From: Sulfolobales archaeon | Lineage (GTDB): Archaea; Thermoproteota; Thermoprotei_A; Sulfolobales; AG1 | Length of the DNA stretch: 64,000 nucleotides | Assembly: GCA_038867615.1 (NCBI GenBank) | Contig: JAWBYA010000001.1 | Span: 1 to 64,000, forward strand | Direction of reading: 5' to 3' | The notes under the pieces: generated by a model | Seen by the model: the letters and a program-made list of their open reading frames with translations, nothing else | The model's database searches: none | What the model was told of the DNA's origin: nothing | Shown here: positions 1-53,138 of the stretch, piece by piece | Layout: each line of letters starts with the position of its first letter | Numbering within the stretch: the first letter of the stretch is position 1 | Made by a program: the position numbers and the translations under genes

Positions 1-120
1 ATTGTTGGGCGGCATTCCAGTGAAATATAAGAGCTTATATAAGGTTACATTACTGCAGAACCTCGAGTTTAATATCAACCCCTATAAACCATCATGAAAT
101 CTGAAACAGCTGGCTATGGC
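1..120 (-). mobile_element. Family-1 TnpB-derived MITE, left part (copy A, truncated by window start)
   Basis: Reverse complement GCCATAGCCAGCTGTTTCAGATTTCATGATGGTTTATAGGGG...GTAACCTTATATAAGCTCTTATATTTCACTGGAATGCCGCCCAACAAT is near-identical to 8967-9086 and 20279-20397. Confidence 0.9.
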
Positions 121-744
121 TTATTCGCGAAGTATGAGTATCGAGAAACCTCTATAGAGTATGAGGGCAGCGAAGATCAACATGACCGAGACAGAGAAGA
201 TCTTTATTGCTAGTGCTGCAACTCCCTTGCCATACATATAGCCTGTCCTTATTGCTAGAGGGAATGTTAGGATCCATATTAATATGGCTATGAAAAGCCC
301 TAGGATCGACCCGAATCCGAATAGATCCATGAAGGAGAGACCCGCCGAAAGCCACCAGAGGATCTGGTAAGGGTTAGTCATGCCGAGAGCAAGTGCTGAT
401 AGAAAGGAGACTACCGAGCCAACCTTATTGCCCTTATCTCTTCTATCAGCATTGTTATCCACCCTAGCCCTTAGGATCCATAGGGCTAGTATGATCATGT
501 AGACTCCTCCTGCTAAATATACAGGCACAAGTGATAGGCTCTTTATAAAGCCATAGGCTGTGTATGTGAGGATCATGAAGATAAGATCAGCTGTCATAGC
601 ACCAAGGCCTGTTAGAAAACCCTCTCTATATGAATATAGAGATCTGCTAGCTATGAGAGCGTTCATCGGACCGGGTGGAACAGCCAGTGAGAAGCCATAT
701 AGAAGGCCTGATACAAACCCGAACAGAGGATCGGTTAGAGGCAT
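121..744 (-). CDS. LysE/RhtB family amino-acid exporter
   Basis: N-terminal 'SLAVPPGPMN' and 'NPY..LWW' motifs, about 6 hydrophobic segments. Confidence 0.85.
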   Translation of the reverse strand: MPLTDPLFGFVSGLLYGFSLAVPPGPMNALIASRSLYSYREGFLTGLGAMTADLIFMILTYTAYGFIKSLSLVPVYLAGGVYMIILALWILRARVDNNADRRDKGNKVGSVVSFLSALALGMTNPYQILWWLSAGLSFMDLFGFGSILGLFIAILIWILTFPLAIRTGYMYGKGVAALAIKIFSVSVMLIFAALILYRGFSILILRE

Positions 745-750
745 TTATAA

Positions 751-2142
751 TCACCTGTAGTGTTCCATTCTAGATAGCCTCACCGTTTGTCCCTGGATGT
801 TCATTCCAATCATTTTATATTCATTCATGGTCTCATCCAGGGACTTCAACCTCGCCCACAGGGATCTTTTTATCCCCGTGGGTTCATGGGCTGCCGTCGA
901 GCCCAACGGCATGGGGCTCCCATCTAGGATTAGCCCTGGGTGGCTTGGAGCGCTGCTCCCATCACCACCCAGGGCTTTTAACAATAAATTATAGCATGCA
1001 ACGACATCCCTATGCCATTTCTCCCTACCTAGCGAGCATATACCTATTCTCGAGCCGTTATATTTTATTTCTGATCTATGTATTGGGCATTGCTTAGATG
1101 TATTCCTAGGATTAACATAGATTACTGGGACGCTGTGTTCTTTAGCCTTCTCCTCAATGGCTCTCTGGATGCCTTTAAACGCTGCTTGGAAGATCCTGTG
1201 TCTTAATTGCTCATCCCTAATCCTGGAGATCATGTTCTCAGCAGGCTTATCGCCGAGATCCTCGAGAACAACACCATATCCATGTTTTAATGCCTCTCTA
1301 ACGATTATGTTCGCTACCTTCCATCTGGTATTGTCTTTCTTTTCTTCCTCCCTAAGCTTCCTCAAGATCTTCCTCTTAGCACGGCATCTAGCATCGTAGA
1401 TCTTATCGTATTTCTCCTGAACCCTCTTCCTCCTATAATAATAGCCAAGTGTTATTTTCTCAATATTTGTTTCAAATAGATATACCTTTCTGTTTATAAG
1501 CACTGCTACATTATTCTCATTAACATCCACAGCTATATAACCACTAGGCTTATATAACCTAACATCCTTTCTAAAAATGAGATATATGATCAACCTTCTT
1601 TCCTTTCTATCAAGCTTTATCCTTGCCTCAGAAGCTAATCTCCAGCCGGAGTTGATATATTTATAGAATTGCTTGTGAGGAACTAGATCTACCTTGATCA
1701 ATCCTCTATGCGTTGATATAGCTATCCTTGTTAAGCCCTCAAGCCTCCATAGGTGGTCGTCAAGCCATATTGAGATCCTCTTAACACTTGGGTATTCCTT
1801 ATCTGTTGATCCCTCTTTCTTTAGTTTTAGGAAGCTCTTAACCCTCGTGGATGCGTCCTGGCATGCCGTGTGAACATAGTGTGATGGTAAATGTGGATAG
1901 AGGTTACGCATCTCCCTATATTTTAAAGCCCTAAGCTTTATGAAAGATTTTATCCCCTCCCTAGCAGAGTATATTACTAGCTGCTCATCAGTATTCCTAT
2001 ACATACCCTCAAGCTCTACAAAAACCCTGAACAGCTTCTTAGAAATCCTCTCAGACCTAACAATAACAGTCCTCGTAACAATCAAAGCATCTTCTTCGTC
2101 ATTAGTAAGCGCTAGGGATGCTTGTGGGAAGCAGCCCACCAA
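751..2142 (-). CDS. tnpB: RNA-guided endonuclease TnpB (family 2), catalytic D/E/D intact
   Basis: RuvC-I 'YIAVDVNENN', RuvC-II 'VVLEDL', 'NTSKQCPIH', RuvC-III 'WHRDVVACYNL'; start codon uncertain; ORF reads through the element right end. Confidence 0.9.
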   Translation of the reverse strand: MVGCFPQASLALTNDEEDALIVTRTVIVRSERISKKLFRVFVELEGMYRNTDEQLVIYSAREGIKSFIKLRALKYREMRNLYPHLPSHYVHTACQDASTRVKSFLKLKKEGSTDKEYPSVKRISIWLDDHLWRLEGLTRIAISTHRGLIKVDLVPHKQFYKYINSGWRLASEARIKLDRKERRLIIYLIFRKDVRLYKPSGYIAVDVNENNVAVLINRKVYLFETNIEKITLGYYYRRKRVQEKYDKIYDARCRAKRKILRKLREEEKKDNTRWKVANIIVREALKHGYGVVLEDLGDKPAENMISRIRDEQLRHRIFQAAFKGIQRAIEEKAKEHSVPVIYVNPRNTSKQCPIHRSEIKYNGSRIGICSLGREKWHRDVVACYNLLLKALGGDGSSAPSHPGLILDGSPMPLGSTAAHEPTGIKRSLWARLKSLDETMNEYKMIGMNIQGQTVRLSRMEHYR

Positions 2143-2282
2143 AACATGCTTAGCAAGGGCCTTATAAATTTTTCCCTATAGCATCAATAGAGAAACAGCC
2201 CATTAGATATACTGCCTCTAATACCCATAAAAATTTCCAAAATCTATCAATTACCCCTATGGATATCAAAAAGAAAACAGCC
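783..2282 (-). mobile_element. Family-2 TnpB-only IS element (IS607/IS605-like, no transposase gene)
   Basis: Left end GGG|CTGTTTTCTTTTTGATAT at about 2282 and right end GTCCCTGGAT...ATCCAGGGACAAACGG at about 783; both ends shared with MITEs at 10697-11036 and 46862-47184. Confidence 0.85.
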
Positions 2283-2286
2283 CTTC

Positions 2287-6202: not shown

Positions 6203-6223
6203 TTAAAAACTAATATTCCGACA

Positions 6224-7928: not shown

Positions 7929-8873
7929 CTAACCAAACCTCTTCAGTATCTCGTTAAGAGCTATTAAGGCTCCCCTCTCCTGGGCCTCGTGTGTCTGGAA
8001 CCCTATGTGTGGTGTAGGGATCACTTTGGGGTGTTTAACCAAGATCTCTTCAACGCTTCCCCTCTCTGGAGGCTCTCTATCAAACACATCGAGAGCTGCA
8101 CAGCTAACCCTACCACTCTCAAGAGCCTCTAGAAGAGCCTCAGGATCTATAACCCCTCCTCTTGAAGTGTTTATAAACACACAGCCATTCTTGAGCATTG
8201 AGAACTCTCTTTTTGAGAACATCCTTCTAGTAGTGTTGTTAAGGGGTACGTGGAGCGAGATGTAGTCACATAGGGGTAGCATTGAGTATAGATCTCTATA
8301 AAGCGTAACACCGAGTTTAGAGGCCTTATCGCTCAGATCCAGGATATCGTTCGCAACAACAACCATCCCCAGGGATTTTGCCAGCTGTGCTACTCTAGAT
8401 CCTATCCTCCCGAGCCCAACTATACATAGCGTCTTTCCATAGAGTTCCGAACCCATTGGTCTCTCCCACAAGCCCTTCTTAACTTTATCAACAACCTCAT
8501 AGAGACTACGTGCACACATGATCATCAAACCTAGTGCTAGTTCAGCGGTAGATATTATTGGAGCCTCGGGTGTGTTGATAACCTCTATACCTCTTTTAGA
8601 AGCCTCTTCCAGATCTATGTTATCAAGTCCGATCCCGACCCTCACTATAAGTCTCAACCTGCCGGCTTTCTCAAACATCTCTCCTCCAATTCTATGCCTG
8701 CTCCTAACTATGAGAATGTCGTAGTGACCAACTATGTTTACAAGATCCCTATACTCGATCCCGGGTCTGTAGGTAACATCAAAGCCTTTCTCGATAAGGC
8801 TCTCTACAAGTGTTTTTGAAACCGCATCTACTATTAGAATTCTAGCCTTCTTCTCGACGACAAACGAAACCAC
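7929..8873 (-). CDS. serA: D-3-phosphoglycerate / D-2-hydroxyacid dehydrogenase
   Basis: 'GIGLDNID', 'GLGRIG', 'NTSRG', 'TPHIG'. Confidence 0.8.
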   Translation of the reverse strand: MVSFVVEKKARILIVDAVSKTLVESLIEKGFDVTYRPGIEYRDLVNIVGHYDILIVRSRHRIGGEMFEKAGRLRLIVRVGIGLDNIDLEEASKRGIEVINTPEAPIISTAELALGLMIMCARSLYEVVDKVKKGLWERPMGSELYGKTLCIVGLGRIGSRVAQLAKSLGMVVVANDILDLSDKASKLGVTLYRDLYSMLPLCDYISLHVPLNNTTRRMFSKREFSMLKNGCVFINTSRGGVIDPEALLEALESGRVSCAALDVFDREPPERGSVEEILVKHPKVIPTPHIGFQTHEAQERGALIALNEILKRFG

Positions 8874-8966
8874 CGCAATAGCTATTTGTAAACATCCTTA
8901 TAAATATTTTCCTACGCATGGTTATCTACGAGTCTCGATTCCCCATAGAGCAGTCCCAGCTTTATC

Positions 8967-9312
8967 GTCGTAGCCAACTGTTTCGGGTTCCATGATGGTT
9001 TATAGGGGTTTATATTAAACCCGGGTTCTGCAGTAATGTAACCTTATATAAGCTCTTATATTTCACTGGGATGCCGCCCAACAATGATTGTAGAGATATG
9101 GATTCGAGTGGGCGGGGTAAAGGCAAAGAGAGCCAGGATGAGTTTTTCTACAGCTATGAGTCAGAGGTAAACTATGAAGGGGAGCTGTGGGTTGGGGTTT
9201 CTCTGGACGGGTAGAGGCCAATGATAAGAACCCCGATGAAAGGAGCCCTGAGGCCCACGAAGCCAAGGAAAGAGTGGTTGATAGAGAAGAGCCACGATGA
9301 AACCTGAACCCC
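8967..9312 (+). mobile_element. Family-1 MITE (copy B): left end, promoter, omegaRNA-like scaffold
   Basis: GTCGTAGCCAACTGTTTCGGG ... TTATATAA (9044-9051) ... GAAACCTGAACCCC; 3' part homologous to 12510-12700. Confidence 0.88.
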
Positions 9313-9355
9313 GCTTTTATCCTTCCATAGGGATCTAGATGCTGAGAGAAATACA

Positions 9356-10483
9356 TTGAGGGTTCTTCTGAGCAGGGCTTCCTGGGATGAGTATGTTGAT
9401 AAAGACCTGTCACAGCTATACATAGGGCTCTTAAGGATTAACAAGATCTATAACGAGGTTAGGAAAGATCCAGAGCAATATAGATCGTTCCTCCTAGGCG
9501 TTATAGGGGGTAGGAGTGTTGGCCATTCACAGAGGATTATGAAGATTATGGGGAATCTCTTCGGGATCCGTGTATCTGGTGCTAGAGAAGCCCTGAGGCT
9601 GGTGGCAAGCGGTGTTCCGCTTGATAGCGCCTCAAAGGATGTTTCATTCAGCTTTAGCGATAGAACAGGTTTTAGAAACCTTGTAGAGGTATCAATACTC
9701 TCTCTAGAATCGATCCTGAAAGATGCTTCGAGAGACCTTGCTAGGATCACTGAAGAGGTCGAGAAGATCGTTATGAGAGATCTCGCAGCTTTAAAGAGCG
9801 ACCCCCTACATATTGTTAAGATCCTGGGTGGCGTTGCATCAGCAAGCACGAGAATAATGCCTCTGAGAAACCCCCATAGCCTCGTTATAGCATCCCTCAC
9901 TGGGATCCCGGTATCTGTTTTCAAAAAACTCTTTGGGGATCCTGGAGAGCTTGTGAAAGCCTCCGGAGGTATTATAGATCCCCAGGTTGTTTTGCCGCTC
10001 GACGAGGAGGATCTATCCGTGATATCGCTCAAACAAGGATCGATCGGAGAGAAAATAGCATATGTTATAGAGAACGCATATAAAATCCACTCTATGATTA
10101 GGAAGACCTGTAGATACTATATACACGGCGAGGATGAAAAGCTACTCCACATGGTTGTAATGACGCCAGAGGCTAGGAGGATTGCCGGTAACATAGGGAT
10201 AGATCTAGGTGTTGAGAGACTCTTAATAAGATCCGCTAGAAAGATCTCAGAACCACATCCAGATATAGCCATTATAAAGGGAACAGCTATAGTAAAACCA
10301 AGCATGTGTAGGGCAAGCCTAGGCAGTGGTATCGAAACCGATTGCCGCAGATTGCTAGAATACCTAGGATTAAAGGTAGGCCTTGGAACTGGGAGAATAT
10401 CTATTATTGGTAGGCCTGAGAGGAGAGTAAGGATCGTGTGGTGGGTATCTATAGAACGCGCCAAACTCAAGGAGGCAGTGTGA
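9356..10483 (+). CDS. Hypothetical protein; 5' end possibly cut by MITE B
   Basis: 375-aa ORF with host-like codon usage; frame open back to the MITE right end. Confidence 0.65.
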   Translation: MRVLLSRASWDEYVDKDLSQLYIGLLRINKIYNEVRKDPEQYRSFLLGVIGGRSVGHSQRIMKIMGNLFGIRVSGAREALRLVASGVPLDSASKDVSFSFSDRTGFRNLVEVSILSLESILKDASRDLARITEEVEKIVMRDLAALKSDPLHIVKILGGVASASTRIMPLRNPHSLVIASLTGIPVSVFKKLFGDPGELVKASGGIIDPQVVLPLDEEDLSVISLKQGSIGEKIAYVIENAYKIHSMIRKTCRYYIHGEDEKLLHMVVMTPEARRIAGNIGIDLGVERLLIRSARKISEPHPDIAIIKGTAIVKPSMCRASLGSGIETDCRRLLEYLGLKVGLGTGRISIIGRPERRVRIVWWVSIERAKLKEAV

Positions 10484-10696
10484 TCAGAGCACTATATCTC
10501 AGCTATATCGGGGCGGATTCTCTTCACTTTGTCAACAAGGGAGAGATACCAAGAAGGAACCTCTATTCCCTCCACTCTTCTAGAGAAGGTATATGGCTTT
10601 ATATCAAGGACGGGCGTCCCGTCGAAGAGATCTAGATTATCAACATACAGAACCCTACCCTCCCTCCCGATAAACGTCACTATGCTTACCGCTATG

Positions 10697-11036
10697 GGCT
10701 GTTTTCTTTTTGATATATAGGGAGATTAATAGGCTTTGGAAATTTTCATGGGTATTGGGGCATGCCTGGAGGCTGCTTCCCCGCCAACACCTAAGGGTAT
10801 TTATAAGCCTTGAAAGATAATGTCCTCGGTGTGGGTCTCCCCACACAGGTCTCGGGTGGTGATGGGAGCAGTGCTCCAAGCCACCCGGGGCTCAACCTAG
10901 ATGGGAGCCGCGTGCTGTTCGGCTCGACGACCGCCCATGAACCCACAGGATTAGAGATCCTGAGGGTTGAGGTGGAAGTCCCTGGATAAGACCATGAATA
11001 AAAAGATGATTGGAATGAACATCCAGGGACAAACAG
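10697..11036 (+). mobile_element. Family-2 MITE inside tsaA
   Basis: Ends match the 783-2282 element; TTTATAAG at 10800, then scaffold GGGTGGTGATGGGAGCAGTGCTCCAAGCCACCC...GTCCCTGGAT/ATCCAGGGAC. Confidence 0.9.
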
Positions 11037-11133
11037 TTGGGTCTGTACGGCGAGTCGGTGCAGAAAACACCCACCATAGGTACTTCTTCCTCAGACAGTC
11101 CAAGCCTGATCAGTCTTTTAGGCCTCACCTTAA

Positions 11134-12700
11134 GCCGTAGCTAACTGTTTCGGATTTCATAGAAGTTTGTATGGATTGATATCAGTTTACGGTTAAGAGG
11201 GTTTGCTGAGGTCTGGGGAGATTATTAAGTTAGGTATTGCTGAAAAAAGTAGCCTGGATAGGTATTTGGGTGTAGGAATTAGGATCTATTGAGGTGTGAA
11301 AGCCAGCTAAGCCCTGTATTGTGGGTTGGGAGTAACATTATATAAGGGGTTATTATTAATTGAGCAGAGACCATGGAAAACTTGCTAGAGACTCGCGAGG
11401 TTGTTAGAACATATAGCGTGCCAATAAACGATGATAGGGTTGAGGATCTGATCACATGGTATGCTGAGATGCTCCAGAAAACAATAGAAAAGATATGGAA
11501 TAACATTATATGGGAGTATAGATTCCCAGAGATAGTTAGGAAGAAGAGAGGAATTAGAGTTAAGATCGGGAGGAAGATCAGGGTTCCAAAAATACCCAGC
11601 GACAAGAACTTTAAGAATAACCTCAGGGATTCCTTATTAACACAATGCCCTTACGCTAAACACTGGGTAGACGCTGTTATCAGAACAGCATACTCTATAA
11701 TCAGTTCTTGGAGGAAGAGGTATCTAAAAGGAAAGGCTAGAAAGACAAAACCAAGGATTAGGAGGAGGTTCGCAAGATGCAAGATAACACTAATGAGTAT
11801 GGATTATGAGAGAAAAATAATAAGAGTAACGTTGAAGCCGGGAGAGTATCTGGAGATCTCTTGGGCTAATAGGTGGTTCGTTAATAGGGTTAGAAATTGG
11901 AGCGTAGGAGAGATCATCATAAAGGATGATAGAGTTCTAATACCATTTAAGAGGAATGAGGTAGAGGTAATAGAGGATCTTGTTGCTTGGGATTCTAACG
12001 AGCTATCACTAGATGGATACTCACCTAGCAGGGGCTTTATAAAAGTCGATCTGAGATATCTGCAGAGTATAAAGATAGTCTATGAGGGGAAGAAGGCAAA
12101 AGCACAGTCAATCGGGAAGAGAGAGCTTTTTGAGAAATACTCTAGGAGGGAGAGGAATAGGGAGAAAGATTTCATAAACAAGCTAGTAAAACAGATAGCA
12201 ATACTATTACCAAAAGCAATACATATACTAGAGGATCTTGAGAAAGAGGATATGGTTAGAAAGGGAGAGGTTGAGAAAAATAGGAGGAAGAGGAACTCAA
12301 GAACACCATGGAAACAAATACACAGAAAGCTATCGGAGAAAGCATTCATAGCAAAGGTATCTCCCAAGAATACTTCACGAACCTGCCCACAATGCGGGTA
12401 TATAGTAAAGACCCAAGTGGGCAGGATATTCAAGTGTAAGAAATGTGGTTTCGAACTAGATAGACAGAAACTCGCATCCCTAAACATATATCTAAAACAT
12501 CTAAAACACACCAAGATGTGGGGGTTCCCCCACAGCAATGAACCCGAGGAAATCTATGAAGGGGAGCTGTGGGTTGGGGTCACCCTGAACGGGTGGAGGC
12601 CAAGGATATGGGCCCCGATGATAGGGGCCCTGAGGCCTATGAAACCAAGGGAAGAGCGGTTGATATCATTTGATATCAACCGCTATGAAGCCCGAACCCC
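11134..12700 (+). mobile_element. Family-1 full-length TnpB-only element (copy C) inside tsaA
   Basis: Left end GCCGTAGCTAACTGTTTCGGATTTCAT, right end CTATGAAGCCCGAACCCC; removal restores the tsaA frame. Confidence 0.9.
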
Positions 12701-12746
12701 TCCTATCGCTTGGAACTATTTTGTGGAGATACGCGATCACTATTAA
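11373..12746 (+). CDS. tnpB: TnpB (family 1) with RuvC-III Asp to Gln substitution
   Basis: RuvC-I 'VAWDSNE', RuvC-II 'ILEDL', Zn finger CPQC..CKKC, RuvC-III 'LDRQKLASLNI'; TATA TTATATAA at 11338. Confidence 0.9.
   Translation: MENLLETREVVRTYSVPINDDRVEDLITWYAEMLQKTIEKIWNNIIWEYRFPEIVRKKRGIRVKIGRKIRVPKIPSDKNFKNNLRDSLLTQCPYAKHWVDAVIRTAYSIISSWRKRYLKGKARKTKPRIRRRFARCKITLMSMDYERKIIRVTLKPGEYLEISWANRWFVNRVRNWSVGEIIIKDDRVLIPFKRNEVEVIEDLVAWDSNELSLDGYSPSRGFIKVDLRYLQSIKIVYEGKKAKAQSIGKRELFEKYSRRERNREKDFINKLVKQIAILLPKAIHILEDLEKEDMVRKGEVEKNRRKRNSRTPWKQIHRKLSEKAFIAKVSPKNTSRTCPQCGYIVKTQVGRIFKCKKCGFELDRQKLASLNIYLKHLKHTKMWGFPHSNEPEEIYEGELWVGVTLNGWRPRIWAPMIGALRPMKPREERLISFDINRYEARTPPIAWNYFVEIRDHY
12510..12720 (+). 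ncRNA. Predicted omegaRNA (scaffold plus host-derived guide) of family-1 TnpB
   Basis: Hairpins GTGGGG/CCCCAC, GGGCCCC/GGGGCCC and perfect 14-bp AGCGGTTGATATCA-TT-TGATATCAACCGCT (12655-12684); this region is the part retained by the MITEs; guide position inferred from known TnpB biology. Confidence 0.7.
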
Positions 12747-12973
12747 GTGGGAGAAACCATCGATACCATCGAGGGCCTCTTCATACTCAGGCAAGACCTC
12801 TATGATGCCAGAGACTCCTCTAATAGATTCCCTAACAACATCATCTGGGAGAGATACCCTTACAAACCCTATAGGTCTTAATATGAACTCCAAAAGCATA
12901 CCCAACATCTCTATACAAACACAGGCTTATCTATTGAAAACCATCTAAACTTAAACCCTCTAGCTATTCTACC

Positions 12974-13726
12974 ATGGTGCTTGGTATGGCGGTAAAGGGA
13001 TACGTTGATCAAGATCACATAGCATGGGCTGTGATTAGCAGGCCTGAGAGGAGGAATGCTTGGAACTCTGAGGTATCAAGGCTCCTAGCAGACTTCATAT
13101 CAAGGATTTCAAATGATGAGAAAATCCTAGGACTTGTTATAACAGGTGATGGTGAGTATTTCTCAGCAGGTGTAGATCTCAGAGAGATCCTTAGTGCGGG
13201 GGATAGAAAGAAGATCTACGAGATCTTTGATTCAGCGAGAAAAGCCTTCGAATCGATCGCTTTGTTCGAAAAACCCGTGGTAGCGGCTGTTAACGGTCCA
13301 GCCTACGGGATCTCTGTCGAGCTAACCCATCTAGTCGATTACGTGATAGCCTCGAAGAAGGCTTCATTCGCAATAACCGGTGCCAGACTAGGGCTAGTAC
13401 CCCCCATATCCCCTGTCATCGGGTGGATCAATATAGGTGTTAGGAGAGCCTCCTATCTAACAATAAGCGGTTCAACAATCACTCCCGAGGATGCCTTAAG
13501 AATAGGGCTTGTCGACGAGATAGCAGATCCAGCTGGTCTGGAGGATAGAGCCAGATCTATAATCAAGGAGATCTCAAAATCAGACCCATATGCTGTCTCA
13601 ACAATAAAGAGGGTAATAGCTCAGCAGAGGCTTAGGGACATAGAGGAAGGCTTTAAACTTATAGCTGAGTCAGCGTTGAGAGAAGATACAAGGAAAAGAA
13701 TAGGAGATTTCCTTAGCAAAAGATAA
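12974..13726 (+). CDS. Enoyl-CoA hydratase/isomerase family
   Basis: 'RPERRNA', 'FSAGVDL', 'KPVVAAVNG', 'IGLVDEI'. Confidence 0.88.
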   Translation: MVLGMAVKGYVDQDHIAWAVISRPERRNAWNSEVSRLLADFISRISNDEKILGLVITGDGEYFSAGVDLREILSAGDRKKIYEIFDSARKAFESIALFEKPVVAAVNGPAYGISVELTHLVDYVIASKKASFAITGARLGLVPPISPVIGWINIGVRRASYLTISGSTITPEDALRIGLVDEIADPAGLEDRARSIIKEISKSDPYAVSTIKRVIAQQRLRDIEEGFKLIAESALREDTRKRIGDFLSKR

Positions 13727-13758
13727 ACGTTTTTCTAGAAACCCAATAGGCTTGAGCA

Positions 13759-14376
13759 TTAATCGGCAGGGACATGTCGTCTTTGAGGTGTCGCTAGATA
13801 GCTCCCTATAATAATACCTGGGATTAGCTCAAAATATGCGACAAGCCTTTCAACTCCTCCGGGACCGAGTCCAAGATCGATTCTTGCTATAAAGAGCACC
13901 AGAAAAACTATTGCTAGAACCCCCATTGTTGGAACGATTATCCTGATATAGCCTTTGAGGATTCTATAGCTTGCTATGGGTGCCGCAGCTCCAAAGATAA
14001 ATGTCACTGCTGCAAAGAGAGTGTGGAGTGAGCCGAATGTCTCGTCAAAGATACCTACACCAATGGATCCTATCCCGGTTATGAACAAGAAGATAGAGAG
14101 ATAAGGATCACCACCGCCCCTCCTAAACATTACAGAGGATAGAATCGCCATTATTCCCAGCAGAATTACAGAGATAGTGAATATCGTCGATGATGGTTGG
14201 AACACCACGCATGAGTGAGCTCTGCAAGTAGCACCTAGATCGCTGATATAGTTCTGCGAAATGCTATAACCAGGATATAGCGAGCTAGCCACAATGAGAA
14301 ATACGAGGAACTGAGAGCATCCGAGGAGTAGGAAGAGTCCTGCGAGGTTCAAGAACCCAGGATCTTTTTGAACCAT
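13759..14376 (-). CDS. DUF998-like membrane protein
   Basis: 'YPGYSISQNYISDLG' and 'GGVERL' motifs, multi-TM. Confidence 0.75.
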   Translation of the reverse strand: MVQKDPGFLNLAGLFLLLGCSQFLVFLIVASSLYPGYSISQNYISDLGATCRAHSCVVFQPSSTIFTISVILLGIMAILSSVMFRRGGGDPYLSIFLFITGIGSIGVGIFDETFGSLHTLFAAVTFIFGAAAPIASYRILKGYIRIIVPTMGVLAIVFLVLFIARIDLGLGPGGVERLVAYFELIPGIIIGSYLATPQRRHVPAD

Positions 14377-14437
14377 ACTAACCCACCCATAAAAATCAAG
14401 CTAATATGATAAAAACCTAGCCATATGATCATAACAC

Positions 14438-14786
14438 GCCAAACCAGCTGCTTCGAGTTTCATGAGGGTTTATAAGGATTGATATTAAACTCGAGGTTCT
14501 GCAGTAATGTAACCTTATATAAGCTCTTATATTTCACTGGGATGCCCGCACAACAACGAGGGTGGGGATAGAGATCCAAGTGGGCGGGTTAAAATAAAAA
14601 CCAGGATGTGGGGGTTTCCCCACAGCTATGAGTCAGAGGTAAACTATGAAGGGGGGCTGTGGGTCGGGGTCACCCCGAATGGGTGGAGGCCAATGATAAG
14701 GGCCCCAATGATAGAGGCCCTGAGGCCCATGAAGCCATGGGAAGAGCGGTTGGTATAAAAATCAACTGCTATGAAGCCCGAACCCC
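14438..14786 (+). mobile_element. Family-1 MITE (copy D)
   Basis: GCCAAACCAGCTGCTTCGAG ... TTATATAA (14515) ... full scaffold ... CTATGAAGCCCGAACCCC. Confidence 0.9.
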
Positions 14787-15440
14787 AAGCCAGCCCAGCA
14801 CGCTCGATGCTGGTGCGTATACTACTATCAGCTCTAGCCATACTATATGGACTATGGTAGAACCCAAAACACCCTGTCTCGCTGCTACAAAGCCTGTTAC
14901 TATGCCAACAAAGAAAGCCCCGGCTATTAGGGGTGGATTGAGGGTTGGTATGTGGACTAGAGTGTAGTATAGGGATGAGAGGAGCATAGCTATAGAACCC
15001 CTAATCCCCAGGATCTCTGCTACAATGTAGCTTTGTACAAAGCCTCTCCAGAAGATCTCCTCCATAAGGCCTATAATAGCTAAATATAACGGTAACAGAT
15101 CTTTGTAACCCCCTATAGAGCTCTCGATAGACGTATAAACCATATCCACATAAGGCCATAACCCCATGAGGATCGAGATATACCCGCCAGCTATAAATAT
15201 AAAATATAGAACCACAGTCGCTATCATCGATAGGATCACTGTCGAGGATATCCAGCCCCTCAGCAAGATCTTCCGAAAATCGCTCCTCCTAGATATTATT
15301 AGTATAGATGTAAACCCCATAATGATCGTCGATATAGCCATCGATACTATGAACCTCTCTCTAAACACTATGAATGATAGTGGGAAGAAAAAGAGAGGCA
15401 TAGCAACTACTGCTAGATCTATTGCCCTATATCTAGGCAT
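14769..15440 (-). CDS. CPBP (CAAX/Abi) intramembrane metalloprotease
   Basis: 'EEIFWRG', 'YTLVH', 'H..W' motifs; stop codon lies inside MITE D. Confidence 0.85.
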   Translation of the reverse strand: MPRYRAIDLAVVAMPLFFFPLSFIVFRERFIVSMAISTIIMGFTSILIISRRSDFRKILLRGWISSTVILSMIATVVLYFIFIAGGYISILMGLWPYVDMVYTSIESSIGGYKDLLPLYLAIIGLMEEIFWRGFVQSYIVAEILGIRGSIAMLLSSLYYTLVHIPTLNPPLIAGAFFVGIVTGFVAARQGVLGSTIVHIVWLELIVVYAPASSVLGWLGVRAS

Positions 15441-18803: not shown

Positions 18804-19147
18804 AGGACTCGAGTTTCATACCGGTTAATATTTTTGATATTAACAGCTTATCCCTCGGCTTTACCGAATCCCAGGGCCCTCTATCATTAGAACCCTTATC
18901 ACTGGCCCCACCATTCGGGGTGGCCCTCCTCATAGTCCCATCTCACGTATTAGCTCTGGCTTACTGCTGTAGAGAAACCCCACATCCCGGCTCTCTACTC
19001 TGATTGCTTGGATCTTTATAGCCGCCCGTATCGTGGGTAGAACCGCTGTAAATTATATTTCATAGCCATTGGTTGTGTTCTCGTAGAATTACGAGCTTAA
19101 TATCAGCTCCCATAAACCCTCATAAAATCAGAAACAGTCGTTACGGC
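18804..19147 (-). mobile_element. Degenerate family-1 MITE (copy E)
   Basis: Reverse complement starts GCCGTAACGACTGTTTCTGATTTTATGAGGGTTTATGG, contains GGATGTGGGGTTTCTCTACAG, ends TTAACCGGTATGAAACTCGAGTCCT. Confidence 0.75.
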
Positions 19148-19234: not shown

Positions 19235-20119
19235 CTATCTGCATCCTTCTCTAAGAACTATCATGGATGCCCATATTCTGTTTGACAATTGCTCTGCTCG
19301 GAAAAAGTTCTGATCAATGCATGATTCAGTATTGAGTAGTTCGTGATAGAGTGGAACAGGGTCATGATCATTTATGAGGATCAGTCTATATATCCTTTTA
19401 TCCTTGTTCTCGCGGATCTTTTCCTTTGTAGCTGTACGCATTTCATAGGGCTTTAAGCCGGTAATATTCATAGCCACTGCACTGCTTTTCAGAATAGCAC
19501 TTGAGATCCTCTCCTCCATTTTGTTAACTAAGCTGATCGCCCTCTCGTGGAACCCTTCTCTTAGTTTTGCTTTGTTTTCCTCGAGAGCCTGGGAGATTTC
19601 TTGAGCACAACACCCGGCCTTTAGCATGATACCCAGGATCTTGGGTAAAAGTATTCTCTCCTCATCCTCTCTATGATCCTCCGTAGTCTCATAATATATA
19701 GCTGCTCTTGATGCGAGTTCTCTTCCCAAATCCTCTGGGGCATAGGTTTGTGCTTCTATGAGATCCTTAAACCTATACTCAATTGTTAAATGAGCATCTT
19801 TTAGATCCCTGAACAACCTAAATACATACCTCTTGGTAAAAGAACCCAACAGCTCTGTTAATGCAGCTAAAGCCTCTTCACTCCTCTCATGGTGTGAGAT
19901 GAACGCATGCCCAAATTCTATATATATGGGTAGCACCTGCTCAAAAGGCTCTTTCTCATCTAGCATATATGCCGATGCAGCAGAAAGTAGCAACGTGTTT
20001 GAAGCTCTCCTAAGAAGCATATGTTCCTTAACATGCCCATCCAGCCACCTAGAGCTCTTCCTCCACCCCCCCCCATACATGGAATACAGGGTCAAAAAAT
20101 ATATAGAACGTGGAACCAT
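19235..20119 (-). CDS. Hemerythrin-like domain protein with C-terminal DUF2249-like domain
   Basis: 'HVKEH', 'HHERSEE', 'DAH', 'HREDEERILLP' ligand pattern; 'LINDHDPVPLY'. Confidence 0.7.
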   Translation of the reverse strand: MVPRSIYFLTLYSMYGGGWRKSSRWLDGHVKEHMLLRRASNTLLLSAASAYMLDEKEPFEQVLPIYIEFGHAFISHHERSEEALAALTELLGSFTKRYVFRLFRDLKDAHLTIEYRFKDLIEAQTYAPEDLGRELASRAAIYYETTEDHREDEERILLPKILGIMLKAGCCAQEISQALEENKAKLREGFHERAISLVNKMEERISSAILKSSAVAMNITGLKPYEMRTATKEKIRENKDKRIYRLILINDHDPVPLYHELLNTESCIDQNFFRAEQLSNRIWASMIVLREGCR

Positions 20120-20278
20120 CCCTCCTATATATAATGTGATTCGAGGTATATATATGTTTACACACATATACAAAGCTATATAGCTGCATGTGCTTACATG
20201 CTAGAAAATATGTATGCTAAGCAGCAATACTTTTACCAACAGAATAAAAATACCTTAAAGCTATAGCTAGCAGAAAAA

Positions 20279-20539
20279 GCCATAGCCAGCTGTTTCAGGT
20301 TTCATGATGGTTTATAGGGGTTTATATTAAACCCGGGTTCTGCAGTAATGGAACACTATATAAGCTCTTATATTTCACTGGGATGCCGCCCAACAATGAG
20401 GGTGGGGATAGAGATCCAAGTGGGCGGGTTAAATAAAAACCAGGATGTGGGGGTTTCCCCACAGCATTGAGCTGAGGCCGAGGAAGCCATGGGAAGAGCG
20501 GTTGATATCAAAAATCAACTGCTATGAAGCCCGAACCCC
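20279..20539 (+). mobile_element. Family-1 MITE with internal scaffold deletion (copy F)
   Basis: Near-identical to copies A/B/D; lacks about 90 nt of the central scaffold. Confidence 0.9.
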
Positions 20540-20584
20540 GTAAAGATATAAGGAATGGTACTAGAACGCAGAATAGCTACTTTA

Positions 20585-22531
20585 CTATTTACCATCTTTA
20601 AGGTATATTGTCTCAGCACCCTCATTAACAACCTTCTCAACAGCTTTTATAACCTCTGTCTCTGTTATAGGTCTTCCGGTCCATTTCAGGGCTTTGTGTT
20701 TTATTACATAGCCTGTCTCCATAGCAATGACTCTGGCGGCTTGTCCCAGGTAGTTGTTCTCTATATCGATCACTAGTCTGGAGGATTCGAGGACTTTTTT
20801 AACGATCCTCTTGGGGAAGGGGCTGAAGACCCTTATTTGGAGGAACCCTACTTTGTAGCCCTTCTCCTTGAGAAGATCCAGAGCGTCTAGAATAGCTCCT
20901 TTGGTTGTTCCCCAGCTAACTATCATTATGTCTGGGTTCTCTTCCCCATATATGGCTACCCTCTCCTCTTCTGGTATCTCTTTATCAGCTGTTTCTAGCT
21001 TTTTAAGCCTCTTCATATACATCTCATACCTAGTCTCAGGATCCTCTGTTATGTGTCCCAGAGGATCGTGCTCATCGCCTGTATACCACATAACAACCCC
21101 AGGTGTTCCTATAAAGGCTCTGGGCGATATACCCTCCTCTGTTATCTCGAATCTCCTGTAATTATTAGCAGGATCTCTGACAAGCTTTCCTCTCTCAATC
21201 TTTACCTTATTCTTATCGATCTTAACCAAGGTCCACGAGTTAGCCAGGTTCTTCTCCACCAGATGTATTACAGGGCATTGATAGATCTCTGCCCAGTTAA
21301 GGGCTCTTACAGCATCGTAGACAGCCTCCTCATGATCTCCTGAGGATACCACGATCCTTGGGAACTCGCCGTGACCTGCGAAGAGTGCGAAAAGCAGATC
21401 AGCCTGGCTATCCCTTGTCGGGAGCCCGGTGCTTGGACCACCTCTCATGTATAGTGTTACAACAACGGGAACCTCGTTAATCCCAGCCCATCCAAGACCC
21501 TCAGCCATTAGTGAGAAGCCAGGTCCGCTGGTTGCTGTAGCGCTCCTAGCACCTGTTAGGGCGGCACCTATAGCCATGTTTATAGCTGCTATCTCATCCT
21601 CGCTTTGGAACACCACTATCCCGGCTCCTTTAAGAAGTTCTGCCTCGTCTTTAAACTCAGGATCTATCTCGATCGCCTCGTAACTCTCTAGGAAGAAGCT
21701 CTCATCGGCAGCAGGCGTTATGGGGTAGTATGTCTGGAAAGTCAGCCCCCCAAGGATCTTCCCTACTGCTACAGCCTCGTTGCCGTTAAGTATAACCATT
21801 GGTTCTTTTCTTGGTTCAAAGCCCTCGAGTTTTTTATCAAAATGGTTAAAGTTATTCTTAACATAGTTATAAACTATATCAGCCACAACCAGGTTCTGCT
21901 CAATAACCTGGGGTCTTTTAGCGCCAAACACATCCTCAAGACCTGCTCTGAAAGCCCCTATTGATACACCTATCATGGCGGTAACTGCTGATAACACTAC
22001 TGTGTTGAGGAATCTCTGAACAGCTGAGAGGCTTCCAGCTTTTAGCCTTTCAGCAGCCTCTGCTAGGATTTTCTGGTATGGGAGTGGGCAGAGCTTTGCT
22101 CCCAGCTTCTCCTCAGCATACATCAGGGCTCCTTTTACACTGGGCTCGTAGCCATTGCTTCTGAGCTTCTCTTTCACATGCTCTTTCGTATCGCTCTCCA
22201 TCATTCCCAGGGCGTCTATTTTAACCTGGCTGAAGGTGGGGTCGAATATTATCGCTCCGCCGGGGACTATGTCGTCGAAGTGGGTTGCTATCGACTCTGC
22301 GTCAAGCCCTGCTACTATATCTACTCTGCTTCTCACAGACCTAACAGGTTTATCCCTAGCCCTTACCTGAAAATAGCTATGCCTACCCATTATGTTAGAG
22401 AAGTACTCTCTCTTTCCATAAACATATAGCCCCATCCTTGCAAGAGACCTTATGAAGATCTGAGCGGCAGTCTCTATACCTCCCCCCTGCGGGCCCCCCA
22501 GTATAACCTCGATCTCGGGCATTCTATGCAC
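20585..22531 (-). CDS. 2-oxoacid:ferredoxin oxidoreductase alpha subunit (fused gamma-alpha type)
   Basis: 'GGPQGGGI', 'YYPITPA', 'EDEIAA', 'ATSGPGFSLM', 'RGGPSTGLPT'. Confidence 0.93.
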   Translation of the reverse strand: MHRMPEIEVILGGPQGGGIETAAQIFIRSLARMGLYVYGKREYFSNIMGRHSYFQVRARDKPVRSVRSRVDIVAGLDAESIATHFDDIVPGGAIIFDPTFSQVKIDALGMMESDTKEHVKEKLRSNGYEPSVKGALMYAEEKLGAKLCPLPYQKILAEAAERLKAGSLSAVQRFLNTVVLSAVTAMIGVSIGAFRAGLEDVFGAKRPQVIEQNLVVADIVYNYVKNNFNHFDKKLEGFEPRKEPMVILNGNEAVAVGKILGGLTFQTYYPITPAADESFFLESYEAIEIDPEFKDEAELLKGAGIVVFQSEDEIAAINMAIGAALTGARSATATSGPGFSLMAEGLGWAGINEVPVVVTLYMRGGPSTGLPTRDSQADLLFALFAGHGEFPRIVVSSGDHEEAVYDAVRALNWAEIYQCPVIHLVEKNLANSWTLVKIDKNKVKIERGKLVRDPANNYRRFEITEEGISPRAFIGTPGVVMWYTGDEHDPLGHITEDPETRYEMYMKRLKKLETADKEIPEEERVAIYGEENPDIMIVSWGTTKGAILDALDLLKEKGYKVGFLQIRVFSPFPKRIVKKVLESSRLVIDIENNYLGQAARVIAMETGYVIKHKALKWTGRPITETEVIKAVEKVVNEGAETIYLKDGK

Positions 22532-42432: not shown

Positions 42433-42791
42433 GACGTAGTAGCTGTTTCAGTTTAACGAAAGTTTATAATAATCATATTGATTCTCATATTAGTTCTTAA
42501 TTGTTTTATAGATAAGCTTATAATATATTAAATATAATTTACTATTATGCATAGCCATAACGTATAGTCCATAGGAGACTCATGCGGGCGGTGGTTAGAG
42601 ATAAAAAGAGCCAGAATATAGGGTTTCCCATGGCATTGAGTCGAGCCATGCTATAGGGGGCTGATTGCTAGGGTAGCTCTTATGGATTGAGGCTAGGGAT
42701 ATTTTCTAGTAGATGAAAAAGAGCCCTGGATTGATAGAGTCGAGGTCTGGCCTGGTTTGCTCGTTATTAACCGCTATGAGGTTCGAGCCCC
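42433..42791 (+). mobile_element. Degenerate family-1 MITE (copy H)
   Basis: GACGTAGTAGCTGTTTCAG left end; GGGCGG..ATAAAAAGAGCCAGAATATAGGGTTTCCC scaffold; right end TTAACCGCTATGAGGTTCGAGCCCC. Confidence 0.7.
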
Positions 42792-43466
42792 TACAGGCAG
42801 TTCTACTACTATGTTAAACAGTATGCATAGCGCCCAGCATCTGATCCTCAGGAAACCTACTTTGGATAGTACGTGTATAAACTTCTCTAGGGGTGGGACG
42901 TTCAATAGTGTTTTCACTATTACTAGGTAGTGCTTAGCATGCCTGGGCGCTGCGGCTGCTACTAGGGCCATGATCGCTACCATGTAGAGTACTTCGATGA
43001 GTAATAGTAAGAGGGAGCCGGGTCGCCAGAAATCGAGAATAATGATCCTTCTTCTACTCGTGTGAATCATGGAAGCTATAGCTCTGGAGAGGCTCATAAC
43101 GTCTCTAAGCATGAAGCCTGCTATGATTGTGTCAAAGGCGTCTTGTCTGAATGGTGCGTATTCTATATATCCCTGGACAACATCTACATCGGGATCTATA
43201 TTTAGTCTTGATAGTATTTTTAGGAAGCGGGGTAGTGGTTCTAGTGCCACTATATAGCTATCTCTATAGATTTTTTTGACATGCCTAATCATGGATCCGC
43301 TGCCGCTCCCCACGTCAAGGATCCTGCCTGGCTTTGCTGCGCTAACAGCTTCTGTCCTAAATCTGTTCTCAAGGCATAGGGTAAAGATCCTTGATGTCTT
43401 GTCATAGGTATCGGCGATATTGTTAAGTTCTTTGAGTATATGGTCTGGATCTATTGTGTGCTCCAT
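42774..43466 (-). CDS. UbiE/MenG-like SAM methyltransferase
   Basis: 'NIADTYD', 'ILDVGSGSG', 'FMLRDV'; stop codon inside MITE H. Confidence 0.8.
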   Translation of the reverse strand: MEHTIDPDHILKELNNIADTYDKTSRIFTLCLENRFRTEAVSAAKPGRILDVGSGSGSMIRHVKKIYRDSYIVALEPLPRFLKILSRLNIDPDVDVVQGYIEYAPFRQDAFDTIIAGFMLRDVMSLSRAIASMIHTSRRRIIILDFWRPGSLLLLLIEVLYMVAIMALVAAAAPRHAKHYLVIVKTLLNVPPLEKFIHVLSKVGFLRIRCWALCILFNIVVELPVGARTS

Positions 43467-46861: not shown

Positions 46862-47184
46862 CGGTTTGACCCTGGATGTTTATACCACTCACTTTATTCA
46901 TGGCCTCATCCAGGGGTTTTCGCCTCTACCCTCAGGATCTCGGATCTCTAATCCTGCTGGGTCATGGGCGGCCGTCGAGCCAATCGGCACGTGGCTCCCA
47001 TCTAGGTTAAGCTGGATGGCTTGGGGCGCTGCTCCCATCTCTGCCCGAGACCTGTGTGGAGAAACCCATATCGAGAGCAGTCCATCTCAAAACTAAAGCT
47101 CAATAAATATCCCTAGACATCGATGGGTACTCACTAATATTCCCCAAACCTATCAACCCCCTATATATCGAAAGAAAACAACCC
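46862..47184 (-). mobile_element. Family-2 MITE
   Basis: Reverse complement GGGTTGTTTTCTTTCGATATATAGGG ... GATGGGAGCAGCGCCCCAAGCC ... ATCCAGGGTCAAAC, colinear with 10697-11036. Confidence 0.85.
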
Positions 47185-49365: not shown

Positions 49366-49374
49366 GCGGCGAGA

Positions 49375-50093: not shown

Positions 50094-51743
50094 GCCGTAG
50101 CTAACTGTTTCGGATTTCATGAAGGTTTGTATGGGTTGATATCAGTTACGGTTAAGAGAGTTTGCTGGGATCTGGAGAGATATGGGAGGCTGGAGATCGG
50201 TTGGGTTTGGTAGTGGTTGGGAGGGCTGTATGTCTGTGGAGGGTAGTAGATAGAGGTTTGGGGGGAGATGTTGGGAAGATATAGGTATTGCTAAAAAGAG
50301 TAGCCTGGACAAGTATTTAGGTATAGAATAGGATCTATTGAGGTGTGGAAGCCAGCTAAGCCCTGTATTGTGGGTTGGGAGTAACATAAATATAAGGGGT
50401 TATTATTAATTGAGCAGAGGCCATGGAAAACACGCTAAAGACTCGCGAGGTTGTTAGGACATATAGTGTGCTAATAAGTGATGATAGGGTTGGGGATCTG
50501 ATCACATGGTATACTGAGATGCTCCAGAGAACAATAGAAAAAAATATGGAATAACATTATATGGAAGTACAAATTCCCAGAGATAGTTAAAAAAGAGAAA
50601 AGAATCAGAGTAAAGATCGGGGGGAAGATCAGGGTTCCAAAAATACCTAGCGACAAGAACTTTAAGAAGAACCTCAGGGATTCCCTATTAACACAATGCC
50701 CTTATGCTAGGCACTGGGTTGATAGCTTGATTAGAACAGCATACTCTATAATCAATTCATGGAGGAAGAGATATCTAAAAGGAAAGGCTAGGAAGACGAT
50801 GCCTAGGATTAGGAGGAGGTTTGCTAGATGCAAAATAACACTAATGAGAATAGATTATGAGAGAAGAATAATAAGAGTAACTCTAAAGCCTGGTGAGTAT
50901 CTAGAGATCTCGTGGGCTAACAGGTGGTTTATCAACAGGGTTAGAGATTGGAATGTTGGAGAGATCATTATAAAGGATAACAGGATCCTAATACCATTCA
51001 AGAAGAACGAGGTAGAGATAATAGAGGATCTTGTTGCATGGGACTCTAACGAGCTTTCGCTAGATGGATACTCACCTAGCAGGGGCTTTATAAAAGTCGA
51101 TCTGAGATATCTGCAGAGTATAAAGATAGTCTATGAGGGGAAGAAGGCAAAAGCACAGTCGCTCGGGAAGAGAGAGCTTTTTGAGAAATACTCTAGGAGG
51201 GAGAGGAATAAGGAGAAGGACTTCATAAACAAGCTAGCAAAACAAATAACAATACTATTCCCAAAAGCATTTACATATACTAGAGGATCTTGAGAAAGAG
51301 GATATGGTGAGGAGAGGAGAGGTTGATAAGGCTAGGAGGAAGAGAAACTCAAGAACACCATGGAAACAGATACACAGAAAACTCTCAGAAAAAGCATTCA
51401 TAGCAAAAATATCTCCCAAGAATACCTCTAGAACCTGCCCACAATGCGGGTATATAGTAAAGACCCAAGTGGGCAGGATATTCAAATGTAAGAAATGCGG
51501 CTTCAAACTAGATAGGCAGAAACTAGCATCAATAAACATATATCTAAAATACACCAGGATGTGGGGGTTTCCCCACAGCTATGAGCCTGAGATATCCTAT
51601 GAAGGGGAGCTGTGGGTCGGGGTCACCCTGAACGGGTGGAGGCCGAGGATAAGGGCCCCAATGATAGAGGCCCTGAGGCCTATGAAACCAAGGGAAGAGC
51701 GGTTGATATCGCTCGACATCAACCGCTATGAAACCCGAACCCC
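50094..51743 (+). mobile_element. Family-1 full-length element (copy G) in the psmB-rps7 divergent region
   Basis: Same ends as copy C; about 90 bp longer leader. Confidence 0.9.
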
Positions 51744-51747: not shown

Positions 51748-51775
51748 CCTTAAAAGACTGTTTAACTACATAACT

Positions 51776-52396
51776 GTGGGTCTTGTGGTGACAAGCGAGG
51801 CCGTGGATCTGTCCGAGAGTGTTGTCTCGATCACAGATATAAAGCTGTTTAATAAGTGGAGCTATGTTGGCATAGACGTAAGGGATCCGAGCCTGAAGAA
51901 ATACATATCCCTCAAGCCAGTATTCCTCCCCCATACAGGGGGTAGGCATGAGCATAGAAGGTTTGGTAAAGCCAGGGTCCCTATAGTGGAGAGACTTATA
52001 AACAACCTCATGAGGAGAGGAAGGAATATCGGGAAAAAGGTATTAGCATATAACATTGTTAAGAACGCCTTCGAAATAATACATCTAAGAACAGGTGAAA
52101 ACCCACTACAGATCCTGGTGAGAGCTATAGAGAATGCCGCACCAAGGGAGGAGACCACAAGGATCATGTACGGAGGAATAGTATACCACGTTGCAGTAGA
52201 CATAGCACCAATGAGGAGAGTCGATCTAGCCTTAAGACATATAGTAGAAGGAGCAAGGCTCTGCGCCTTCAAGAGCGTAAGGCCAATAGAGGAATGCCTA
52301 GCAGAAGAGATAATAGCAGCAGCATCCAACGATCCCAAAAGCCACGCAATAGCTAGGAAAGATGAGATAGAAAGAATAGCACTCAGCTCTAGGTAG
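51776..52396 (+). CDS. rps7: 30S ribosomal protein S7 (uS7)
   Basis: 'KLFNKWS', 'PHTGGRH', 'ENAAPREE', 'ERIALSSR'; start GTG inferred from the TATA-like box at about 51749. Confidence 0.96.
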
Positions 52397-52588
52397 GCAT
52401 ACACATCTTTTCCTCTGCCTATCCAAAACCCAGGCTTGGAGACCGTTTCTTATTCATTCTTCATAGCGATTATGGGTATTGCTATACTGGGGTATCACGC
52501 CGGTGTTAGTAATAGCCCTAAATACGGTGGAATTGCTTCTGCTAATACTCTTATAAAAGATCTGTTATTGAGAGGCTCTGTGTTGATG

Positions 52589-52665
52589 TGGTGGGCCCGG
52601 GGGGATTTGAACCCCCGACCCCCCGGTTATCAGCCGGGTGCTCCACCAGGCTGAGCTACGGGCCC
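52589..52665 (-). tRNA. tRNA-Ile (GAU), intron-less, CCA encoded
   Basis: GGGCCCGTAGCTCAGCCTGGTGGAGCACCCGGCT-GAT-AACCGGGGGGTCGGGGGTTCAAATCCCCCCGGGCCCACCA. Confidence 0.96.
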
Positions 52666-52791
52666 ACCATTTATCTTTATATTCCAAGCCCTATAACTTT
52701 CAACACTGTAGATCTATATGTGCGGTCTTAAAGCTAGATACTCGTGTGCCCTGATATAACTCGCACTAGACATATCTATCGATGATTATTG

Positions 52792-53138
52792 GGGGTTCAA
52801 GCCTCATATAGGTTGATCAAAGTATCAACAGCGCTTCTCATTGTTTCACAGGCCTCGGGGCCATCTGTCATTGAGGCCCTTATCCTTGGTATCCGCCGTT
52901 AGGGGTTGCACCATCCCAACTACATTTACCGTTTTGCCCTGGTTATTGCTTAGGAAGCACTATATCCGTGTTCTCTTTATCCACCCCGCTATCTACACGC
53001 CCCTCGGGTCTTTATAGCTACCCATTGTTAGACTGATATCCCCATAGAATAATAGAGCCATGCTATGTTCCCACAGAACTACATACTTAGTATTATTCCT
53101 TGTAAACACTCTTGAAACTCGAAGCAATTGGCTATAGC
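52792..53138 (-). mobile_element. Degenerate family-1 MITE (copy I)
   Basis: Plus strand GGGGTTCAAGCCTCATATAGGTTGATC..ATCAACAGCGCTTC (right end) and TAAACACTCTTGAAACTCGAAGCAATTGGCTATAGC (left end). Confidence 0.72.

Follow-up and report, generated by a model that had tools for sequence, protein, structure and literature searches.

Stand-alone omegaRNAs, guide RNAs of TnpB-type effectors, have been described as evidently mobilised units without effector or transposase that lie beside effector-bearing loci and work in trans (PMC10691335, on Altae-Tran et al. 2021). Two further sources deal with the haloarchaeal palindrome-associated transposable elements (PATEs): these are TnpB transposons that have lost their core and show neither inverted repeats nor duplications, their insertions differ between strains despite the absence of an intact transposase (Dyall-Smith et al. 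2011, PMC3119063), and they frequently code for omegaRNAs that depend on TnpB in trans (PMC10055086, a 2023 preprint by Meers et al.). For IS607 elements with TnpB, another report gives GG as the core dinucleotide and TGGG as the motif, and proposes that TnpB restores the element after excision (10.1101/2023.11.20.567912, Zedaveinyte et al. 2023). Here we analyse the first 64 kb of contig C1 (hereafter the window) of a Sulfolobales archaeon whose assembly (G000; 2.22 Mb, 28 contigs, 46% G+C) is 94% complete. The window carries nine loci of one transposon family, which we call family 1: two elements with a tnpB gene and seven short copies without one. We hold it moderately probable that the short copies act as stand-alone omegaRNA units and promote their own retention by way of a TnpB supplied in trans.

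In these terms the family 1 mini-elements are probably archaeal IS607-type stand-alone omegaRNAs, a kind already described, and call for no new category. Like the published examples, they have an omegaRNA without effector or transposase, an effector locus in the same genome and a guide that lies beyond the transposon end; unlike them, they sit in a hyperthermophile-type archaeon, appear to belong to the IS607 type, and keep a fused tnpB promoter and a hairpin from the coding region, and their use in trans is a prediction. With PATEs they share gene-less core deletions, the lack of inverted terminal repeats and target duplication, an excess over coding elements, and strain-specific sites, whereas PATEs are defined for IS605-type (Y1) transposons and have near-terminal palindromes at both ends, and family 1 has a serine recombinase relative and a weak left palindrome. 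The likeness to IS607 lies in a serine recombinase with tnpB (in the relative L006, below), the lack of inverted repeats and duplication, a scarless joint, a core dinucleotide shared by target and end, and a transposon-associated motif (TAM) that overlaps it; the differences are GCC in place of TGGG, CC in place of GG, an archaeal host, no intron, and a set of finds made up of tnpA-less and gene-less forms only. An earlier note on this DNA had called the short copies MITEs (miniature transposable elements with inverted repeats), and like MITEs they are short, numerous, non-coding and in need of a transposase in trans; the label does not fit, however, since family 1 copies have neither terminal inverted repeats nor target-site duplications. 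Our literature search, with supplements outside its reach, brought up no account of IS607 mini-elements from archaea in which the tnpB promoter is joined to the scaffold, though such reports may exist; the fused promoter, the retained coding hairpin, the GCC motif and the parallel second family described below are details that we did not meet in the literature as far as it was available. By public record titles, the relatives that share the TnpB are hot-spring Desulfurococcaceae and Sulfolobales-order archaea, among them a Desulfurococcaceae isolate with a TnpB 89% identical to this one, and the DNA runs that hold the window stretch are labelled as hot-spring or sediment metagenomes. A search for sequencing runs returned 24, none of them recorded as RNA.

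The anatomy of the short copies is best read against the full family 1 tnpB element at 11137-12700(+), which has no tnpA. Clean empty sites at syntenic positions in two genomes of the same genus (G003:C13 and G002:C23) define its limits, with a 2-nt CC ambiguity that also allows 11135-12698; GCC stands immediately outside its left end (11134-11136(+)), and its right end reads GAACCCC (12694-12700(+)). Its tnpB open reading frame (ORF; 11373-12746(+), 457 aa), the only intact family 1 copy that a search of the genome returned, follows a TATA box (TTATATAA, 11338-11345(+)) that starts 35 nt 5' of the ATG and is its predicted promoter; across 1213 long ORFs of the genome, hexamers resembling a TATA box are most frequent at -40 to -35 relative to the ATG. 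An omegaRNA-type scaffold at 12500-12700(+) scores 231 bits with our covariance model and ends at the right end, so placed that the tnpB ORF spans all of it and continues 46 nt beyond, and the first nucleotide of the predicted guide is 12701. We built a profile hidden Markov model (HMM) of 347 positions from 18 near-full genome copies and used it at E<=1e-3. Its consensus matches the full element in four collinear blocks: positions 1-45 correspond to the left end at 78% identity, positions 71-99 to the TATA region at 76% (E 0.012), positions 110-151 to element nt 1252-1294 within the zinc-finger coding part of tnpB at 79% (E 2e-5), and positions 155-347 to the last 197 nt of the element at 88%. 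With high confidence, we therefore interpret the short copies as internal-deletion derivatives of the tnpB element that join the left end, tnpB TATA and hairpin to the 190-nt 3' scaffold together with the right end; the deletions took out about 1 kb of tnpB and 75 nt between the two structured modules. The third block implies that the "5' stem" of the short copies is a retained piece of tnpB zinc-finger coding sequence, a hairpin that lies at 12382-12425(+) in the full element (CCTGCCCAC ... GTGGGCAGG). The earlier note had anticipated much of this. Its nine window loci were all found again by the two models, within a few bases of where it placed them; its joining of left end and tnpB promoter to scaffold and right end agrees with the four blocks; and the sequence contains, letter for letter, what it quoted as TATA strings, as the CCGCCCA..TGGGCGG stem and as three flanking guides.

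Vacant sites in related genomes carry the argument for precise ends. A 14-kb stretch was compared with 20 relatives, and three further C1 copies with G003. Both G003 (flanks 93-94% identical) and G002 (85-88%) are collinear with the window and lack several elements: the short copies at 8970-9312 and 14440-14786, the full tnpB element and a 337-bp repeat at 10699-11035 are missing from both, and the three further C1 short copies are missing from G003. Thus G003 is empty at the full element and at 5/5 short copies checked, the latter where flanks are 92-95% identical, and four of these six sites are also empty in G002. The junctions are clean, with no target duplication and no footprint, and elements span R-TAGCC... 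to ...GAACCCC. In metagenome DNA from four runs covering 8300-15400, contigs are broken at the repeats, none crosses any element cleanly, and the joints connect different copies of the repeats. The left-end flank is strongly biased (G in 45 of 48, then C in 44 and C in 41), and since CC also closes the element, its junction is ambiguous by 2 nt; CC is the core dinucleotide common to the target and the element right end. At the vacant site, GCC lies immediately 5' of the sequence found beyond the right end of the occupied site. The order of the empty site thereby fixes the ends and places GCC next to the guide, which is the geometry of TnpB homing; TnpB homing endonucleases are described (PMC10055086; 10.1101/2023.11.20.567912) as recognising a vacant site by motif-plus-guide geometry. 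As for the ends themselves, the left one has an 11-nt inverted repeat (91% complementary, a weak palindrome), the right one has a 9-bp stem that closes 17 nt before the end, and element 14440-14786 shows no inverted pair joining its ends and no flanking direct repeat.

Each copy has its own flanking guide, as had been claimed, and the earlier note saw in them a distributed CRISPR-like library, which we take to mean guides that would send TnpB to foreign DNA or to second genomic sites for defence or regulation. The combination of many different guides with one nuclease would suit such a role, but at the empty sites each guide is the chromosomal sequence that followed GCC before insertion, ordinary flanking DNA contiguous with the TAM. 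Second sites are not in excess either: in this genome, a second site at <=1 mismatch exists for 14 of 67 guides and for 45 of 264 control 16-mers, none of the extra sites of the guides is preceded by GCC, and matches at <=2 mismatches stand at chance level. There is also no acquisition machinery and no array, and we consider a library of this kind very improbable, the least likely of the explanations weighed here. Because the guide is contiguous with the TAM at the empty site, its sole predicted target is the copy-free allele of the same locus. One guide sits in an unusual setting: that of the copy at C1:235505(-) lies inside another repeat (AAGCC followed by ATCCAGGGGATGATCT or the near variant ATCTAGGTGATGATCT), with six further sites at <=2 mismatches that each have the GCC motif 5', and this may be a preferred target within another repeat family.

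The 3' part of the element is, on the evidence of covariation, a conserved structured RNA. A consensus structure of 47 pairs was derived with RNAalifold from 19 copies and turned into a covariance model, which found 17 scaffolds in loci of other genomes. In 16 distinct rows from those genomes, 93.5% of the cells are paired, compared with 30-53% when the partners are slid, and both sides have changed in 21 of the 47 pairs against 7.1 +/- 2.0 after shuffling (0/500 shuffles reach 21). Within the subterminal 9-bp helix, six of nine pairs have changed on both sides across genomes, and the pair-keeping substitutions that the earlier note had pointed out there fall in alignment columns 165-190 and 166-189. 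The tnpB-linked scaffold folds with a z-score of -5.44, and its location is that of an omegaRNA, at the element 3' end, overlapping the end of tnpB and stopping at the right end that the empty sites define. Rfam at gathering score found one tRNA and no other family in the window, and at E<=10 on 12300-12760 it gave chance-level matches only. The roughly 75 C-terminal TnpB residues encoded by the scaffold (12500-12746) are conserved in homologues, which implies that the region is both coding and structured RNA.

The candidate partner of these RNAs is the TnpB of 11373-12746. It matches Pfam PF07282 (Cas12f1-like_TNB; E 7.9e-14, 52 bits against a cut-off of 26.3), gives weak matches to solved TnpB and Cas12f chains, and has columns conserved across homologues in WDSNE, EDLEK, the zinc-finger and LDRQ. 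We take the D, E and D within WDSNE, EDLEK and LDRQ to be the catalytic RuvC residues of TnpB. The second full-length family 1 element (50097-51743(+), 89% identical to the intact one) has a scaffold that scores 226 bits (51543-51743(+)), with its tnpB in pieces through TAG and TAA stops. Altogether the genome has five TNB-domain matches, namely the intact and broken family 1 genes, a gene on C6 (43% identical), one on C2, and the window ORF 751-2142(-). One intact cognate tnpB thus stands beside 74 scaffold matches in the genome, and with a single intact cognate TnpB any use of the short copies must be in trans.

The autonomous relative of family 1 appears, from the arrangement in one public record, to be IS607-type. 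In that record, L006, the family 1 left end (849-891) is followed by a TnpA at 786-1514, whose 242 codons specify HTH_17/MerR and Resolvase domains, then by a tnpB that shares 71% identity with that of the window and by a scaffold at 2609-2798; a second record, L007, begins in the same way and then enters a masked stretch. IS607 as described in print is matched by the CC shared between target and element end, by ends that form no inverted repeats and by vacant sites without a scar. A recombinase of the L006 type has a match in 5/5 other genomes of the genus and no match in this genome. Three candidate sources of mobility were weighed. The IS607 elements of G003 and G002 have a TnpA about 50% identical to the L006 protein and no family 1 ends; the single resolvase of this genome, on C23, is not supported as mobiliser, having no MerR-type helix-turn-helix and no family 1 ends nearby; and a Y1 transposase (PF01797), rejected for this family, has no match here and is found in 3/21 genomes overall. 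In the same genus, locus L105 (G004:C18:13500-17626) holds the one intact tnpA-tnpB element found, of IS605 type, with a 148-aa Y1 tnpA followed by tnpB in several frames, and this element has no family 1 ends.

Counted at E<=1e-5 in 21 genomes, scaffold matches number 74 in this genome (G000) and, in the same genus, two in G001, 88 in G002, 41 in G003, 30 in G004 and 70 in G005; the sister genus has three in G008 and five in G011, and 13 further genomes have none. The long persistence proposed earlier therefore holds for the family, which is present in 6/6 genus genomes searched, this one included, and fails for the individual loci, 5/5 short copies being absent from the close genome.

A promoter plus omegaRNA mini-gene used in trans is a plausible description of the short copies, and the steps that would follow can be laid out, although transcription, TnpB binding, cleavage and homing are all things that we infer from the DNA. 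The retained promoter would transcribe each copy into an RNA of about 250 nt whose 3' tail is the host DNA beyond the right end. The single intact cognate TnpB (11373-12746) would bind these RNAs in trans, and the complex would recognise GCC plus guide, a combination expected only in the allele free of the mini-element. Repair of the cut allele from the element-bearing copy would then restore or spread the mini-element, amounting to retention and homing, while movement to new sites would need the serine recombinase TnpA in trans.

The main alternative is that the short copies are inert debris: deletion derivatives spread by virtue of their two retained ends, the rest being inherited and decaying neutrally, with no functional RNA and no use by TnpB. 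We think this unlikely on balance, while granting it a substantial share of the probability. The HMM gave 127 matches that merge into 99 loci (22,411 bp, about 1% of 2.22 Mb), so that the earlier expectation of many more copies was borne out in kind, at about one third of the number that the window density of nine per 64 kb would predict. By HMM coverage, 27 of the 99 loci have all six scored blocks, nine are without the hairpin only, eight are without HMM positions 195-280 (several with identical breakpoints), four are without both scaffold blocks (positions ~174-248), and the remainder are fragments. Identical internal breakpoints at different sites indicate that the deleted forms themselves spread.

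Several of our results count against the idea of retention through TnpB in trans, and some of them speak directly for debris. Copies are 8-20% divergent in pairwise comparison and many are decayed, with 72 of the 99 loci lacking one or more blocks. The spread of the scaffold-deleted subfamilies (8 and 4 loci) indicates that an intact scaffold is dispensable for spread. Neither a Y1 (PF01797) nor an IS607-type transposase was found in this 94%-complete genome, and without excision the guides have no target within the cell. The RNA evidence has soft points too: the cross-genome scaffold alignment (A3) was fitted to the model and so favours structure, with the margin being large; single-sequence folds of whole predicted transcripts beat shuffled sequences only moderately (z -3.07 and -2.62); and that of the 14440-14786 transcript is without the 5' hairpin. 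Finally, conservation within one family is partly common descent, not selection at each locus.

What tells against inert debris is the choice of parts that the short copies have kept. The retained blocks are exactly a promoter and two modules of structured RNA; lost are about 1 kb of tnpB and the 75 nt that separated these modules. The 12382-12425 hairpin also occurs in tnpB of other genomes (36-89% protein identity) with compensating changes, and in an alignment of 39 sequences (35 distinct) its outer 7-bp stem is 93.5% paired. One of its pairs is C-G in 25 rows, from short copies, and U-A in eight rows, from tnpB-linked copies, a compensating change that points to preservation of the stem after the sequence had ceased to code. 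Conservation across 17 full copies is highest in the TATA segment (0.935), followed by scaffold (0.92), left end (0.91) and hairpin (0.90), and lowest in the spacers (0.78 and 0.86). The class with all blocks is the largest, at 27 loci against eight and four that are scaffold-deleted; a second family appears to have converged on the same design; and stand-alone omegaRNAs are reported to work in trans elsewhere (PMC10691335). The TATA conservation, the retained modules, the large all-block class and the second family would fit selection acting on an expressed RNA in those lineages that multiplied. As a speculative side reading, the deletion subfamilies could be natural minimal omegaRNA scaffolds that putatively still work.

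The second TnpB family is unrelated to family 1, and comparison of its copies suggests that it converged on the same mini-element design. Its ORF with a TNB domain, 751-2142(-), lies in an element at 751-2280(-). A 337-bp mini-element at 10699-11035(+) matches the element at its left end (2280-2220) and over its final 180 nt (970-785); between the two matching parts stands a TATA-like box. Genome-wide the second family gives 47 BLAST matches, 14 of them near full length, with a further copy in the window at 46864-47075(-), and matches to the 3' 180 nt of 10699-11035 extend to genomes from other families of the order.

The family 1 short copies of the window range from complete to barely recognisable, with E-values of 1e-32 to 1e-116 for the window HMM matches. 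Those at 8970-9312(+) (match 8971-9312, E 6e-97, 159 bits with the covariance model, guide from 9313, GCTTTTATCC...) and 14440-14786(+) (match 14443-14786, E 1e-115, 236 bits, GCC at 14437-14439, guide from 14787, AAGCCAGCCC...) are complete, and both are empty in G003 and G002. At 1-117(-) the contig start truncates a copy to its left-end half (match 1-116, HMM positions 1-117, E 6e-32, flank AAGCC). Two others are diverged: 18804-19145(-), whose outer left limit is estimated (match 18808-19139, E 1e-37; covariance model 18804-19001(-), 76 bits), and 52792-53135(-) (match 52792-53134, E 7e-42, 69 bits). The copy at 20282-20539(+) (match 20283-20539, HMM segments 1-194 and 281-347) belongs to the subfamily without positions 195-280 in mid-scaffold. 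The most distant relative, 42433-42791(+), with its left limit taken from the earlier note, fell below HMM detection, and its scaffold alone (42600-42791) was recovered by the covariance model (34 bits, E 6e-10). The HMM also detects the 3' parts of both tnpB-bearing elements (12505-12700 and 51546-51743).

The surroundings of these copies bear on another explanation, in which an outward TATA promoter and a structured RNA alter the expression of neighbours by read-through, antisense transcription or changed 3' ends, an effect for which some copies would be maintained. In its favour, ORF 14769-15440(-) terminates within copy 14440-14786, copy 8970-9312 sits 44 nt 5' of ORF 9356-10483, copy 52792-53135(-) is directed at a tRNA gene 127 nt away, and the promoter block is well conserved. 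By inspection, however, the six window copies have no consistent orientation to their neighbours, and 5/5 checked copies are missing at the same loci of an otherwise collinear sister species; we judge it quite improbable that such side effects explain the copies. The tRNA gene (52592-52665(-), 70.9 bits) lies downstream of the right end of 52792-53135(-), on the strand that the promoter of that copy would read. Three neighbouring ORFs extend a few codons into mini-element ends, namely the CAAX-protease-like 14769-15440(-), the methyltransferase 42774-43466(-) and the AglB/STT3-like 53128-55440(+), and insertions so tight against gene ends may have altered termini or start-codon calls.

Two further segments are associated with family 1 sequence. 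Between copies 18804-19145(-) and 20282-20539(+), whose left ends face inward, lies a gene for a 312-aa protein (19235-20173(-)) with no Pfam match and 75%-identical paralogues elsewhere; collinearity with G003 and G002 ends at 18691 and restarts, at about 20577-20586, on different contigs. A segment of 2.75 kb that lies beyond the window (C1:105095-107842) and is missing from G003 and G002 starts directly after the CCA end of a tRNA gene (ATGCC then GTAAC...), carries a 663-aa ORF without Pfam match and ends in what is left of a family 1 hairpin, followed by scaffold and right end. This may be a derivative that carries cargo, but G003 lacks a clean empty site there.

Our results offer a clean natural example, from a thermophilic archaeon, of a TnpB transposon apparently reduced to a promoter and a guide-RNA gene. 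It provides exact ends, a predicted GCC target motif and an upstream hairpin that is possibly part of the omegaRNA, and the natural scaffold-deletion variants would help to define how small a thermostable TnpB guide can be. The genus itself, with its closely related genomes differing at nearly every insertion checked, should likewise be useful for studies of homing and of transposase supply in trans. More speculatively, and with a small chance in our estimation, one TnpB with about 70 flank-derived guides, in a genome where no transposase is visible, might act as a chromosome-wide allele drive or as a recombination barrier between related strains. If so, incoming alleles free of the mini-element would be cut and then converted or lost, stretches of chromosome would hitch-hike with the insertions, and lineages would exchange genes in a pattern set by the differences between their insertions.

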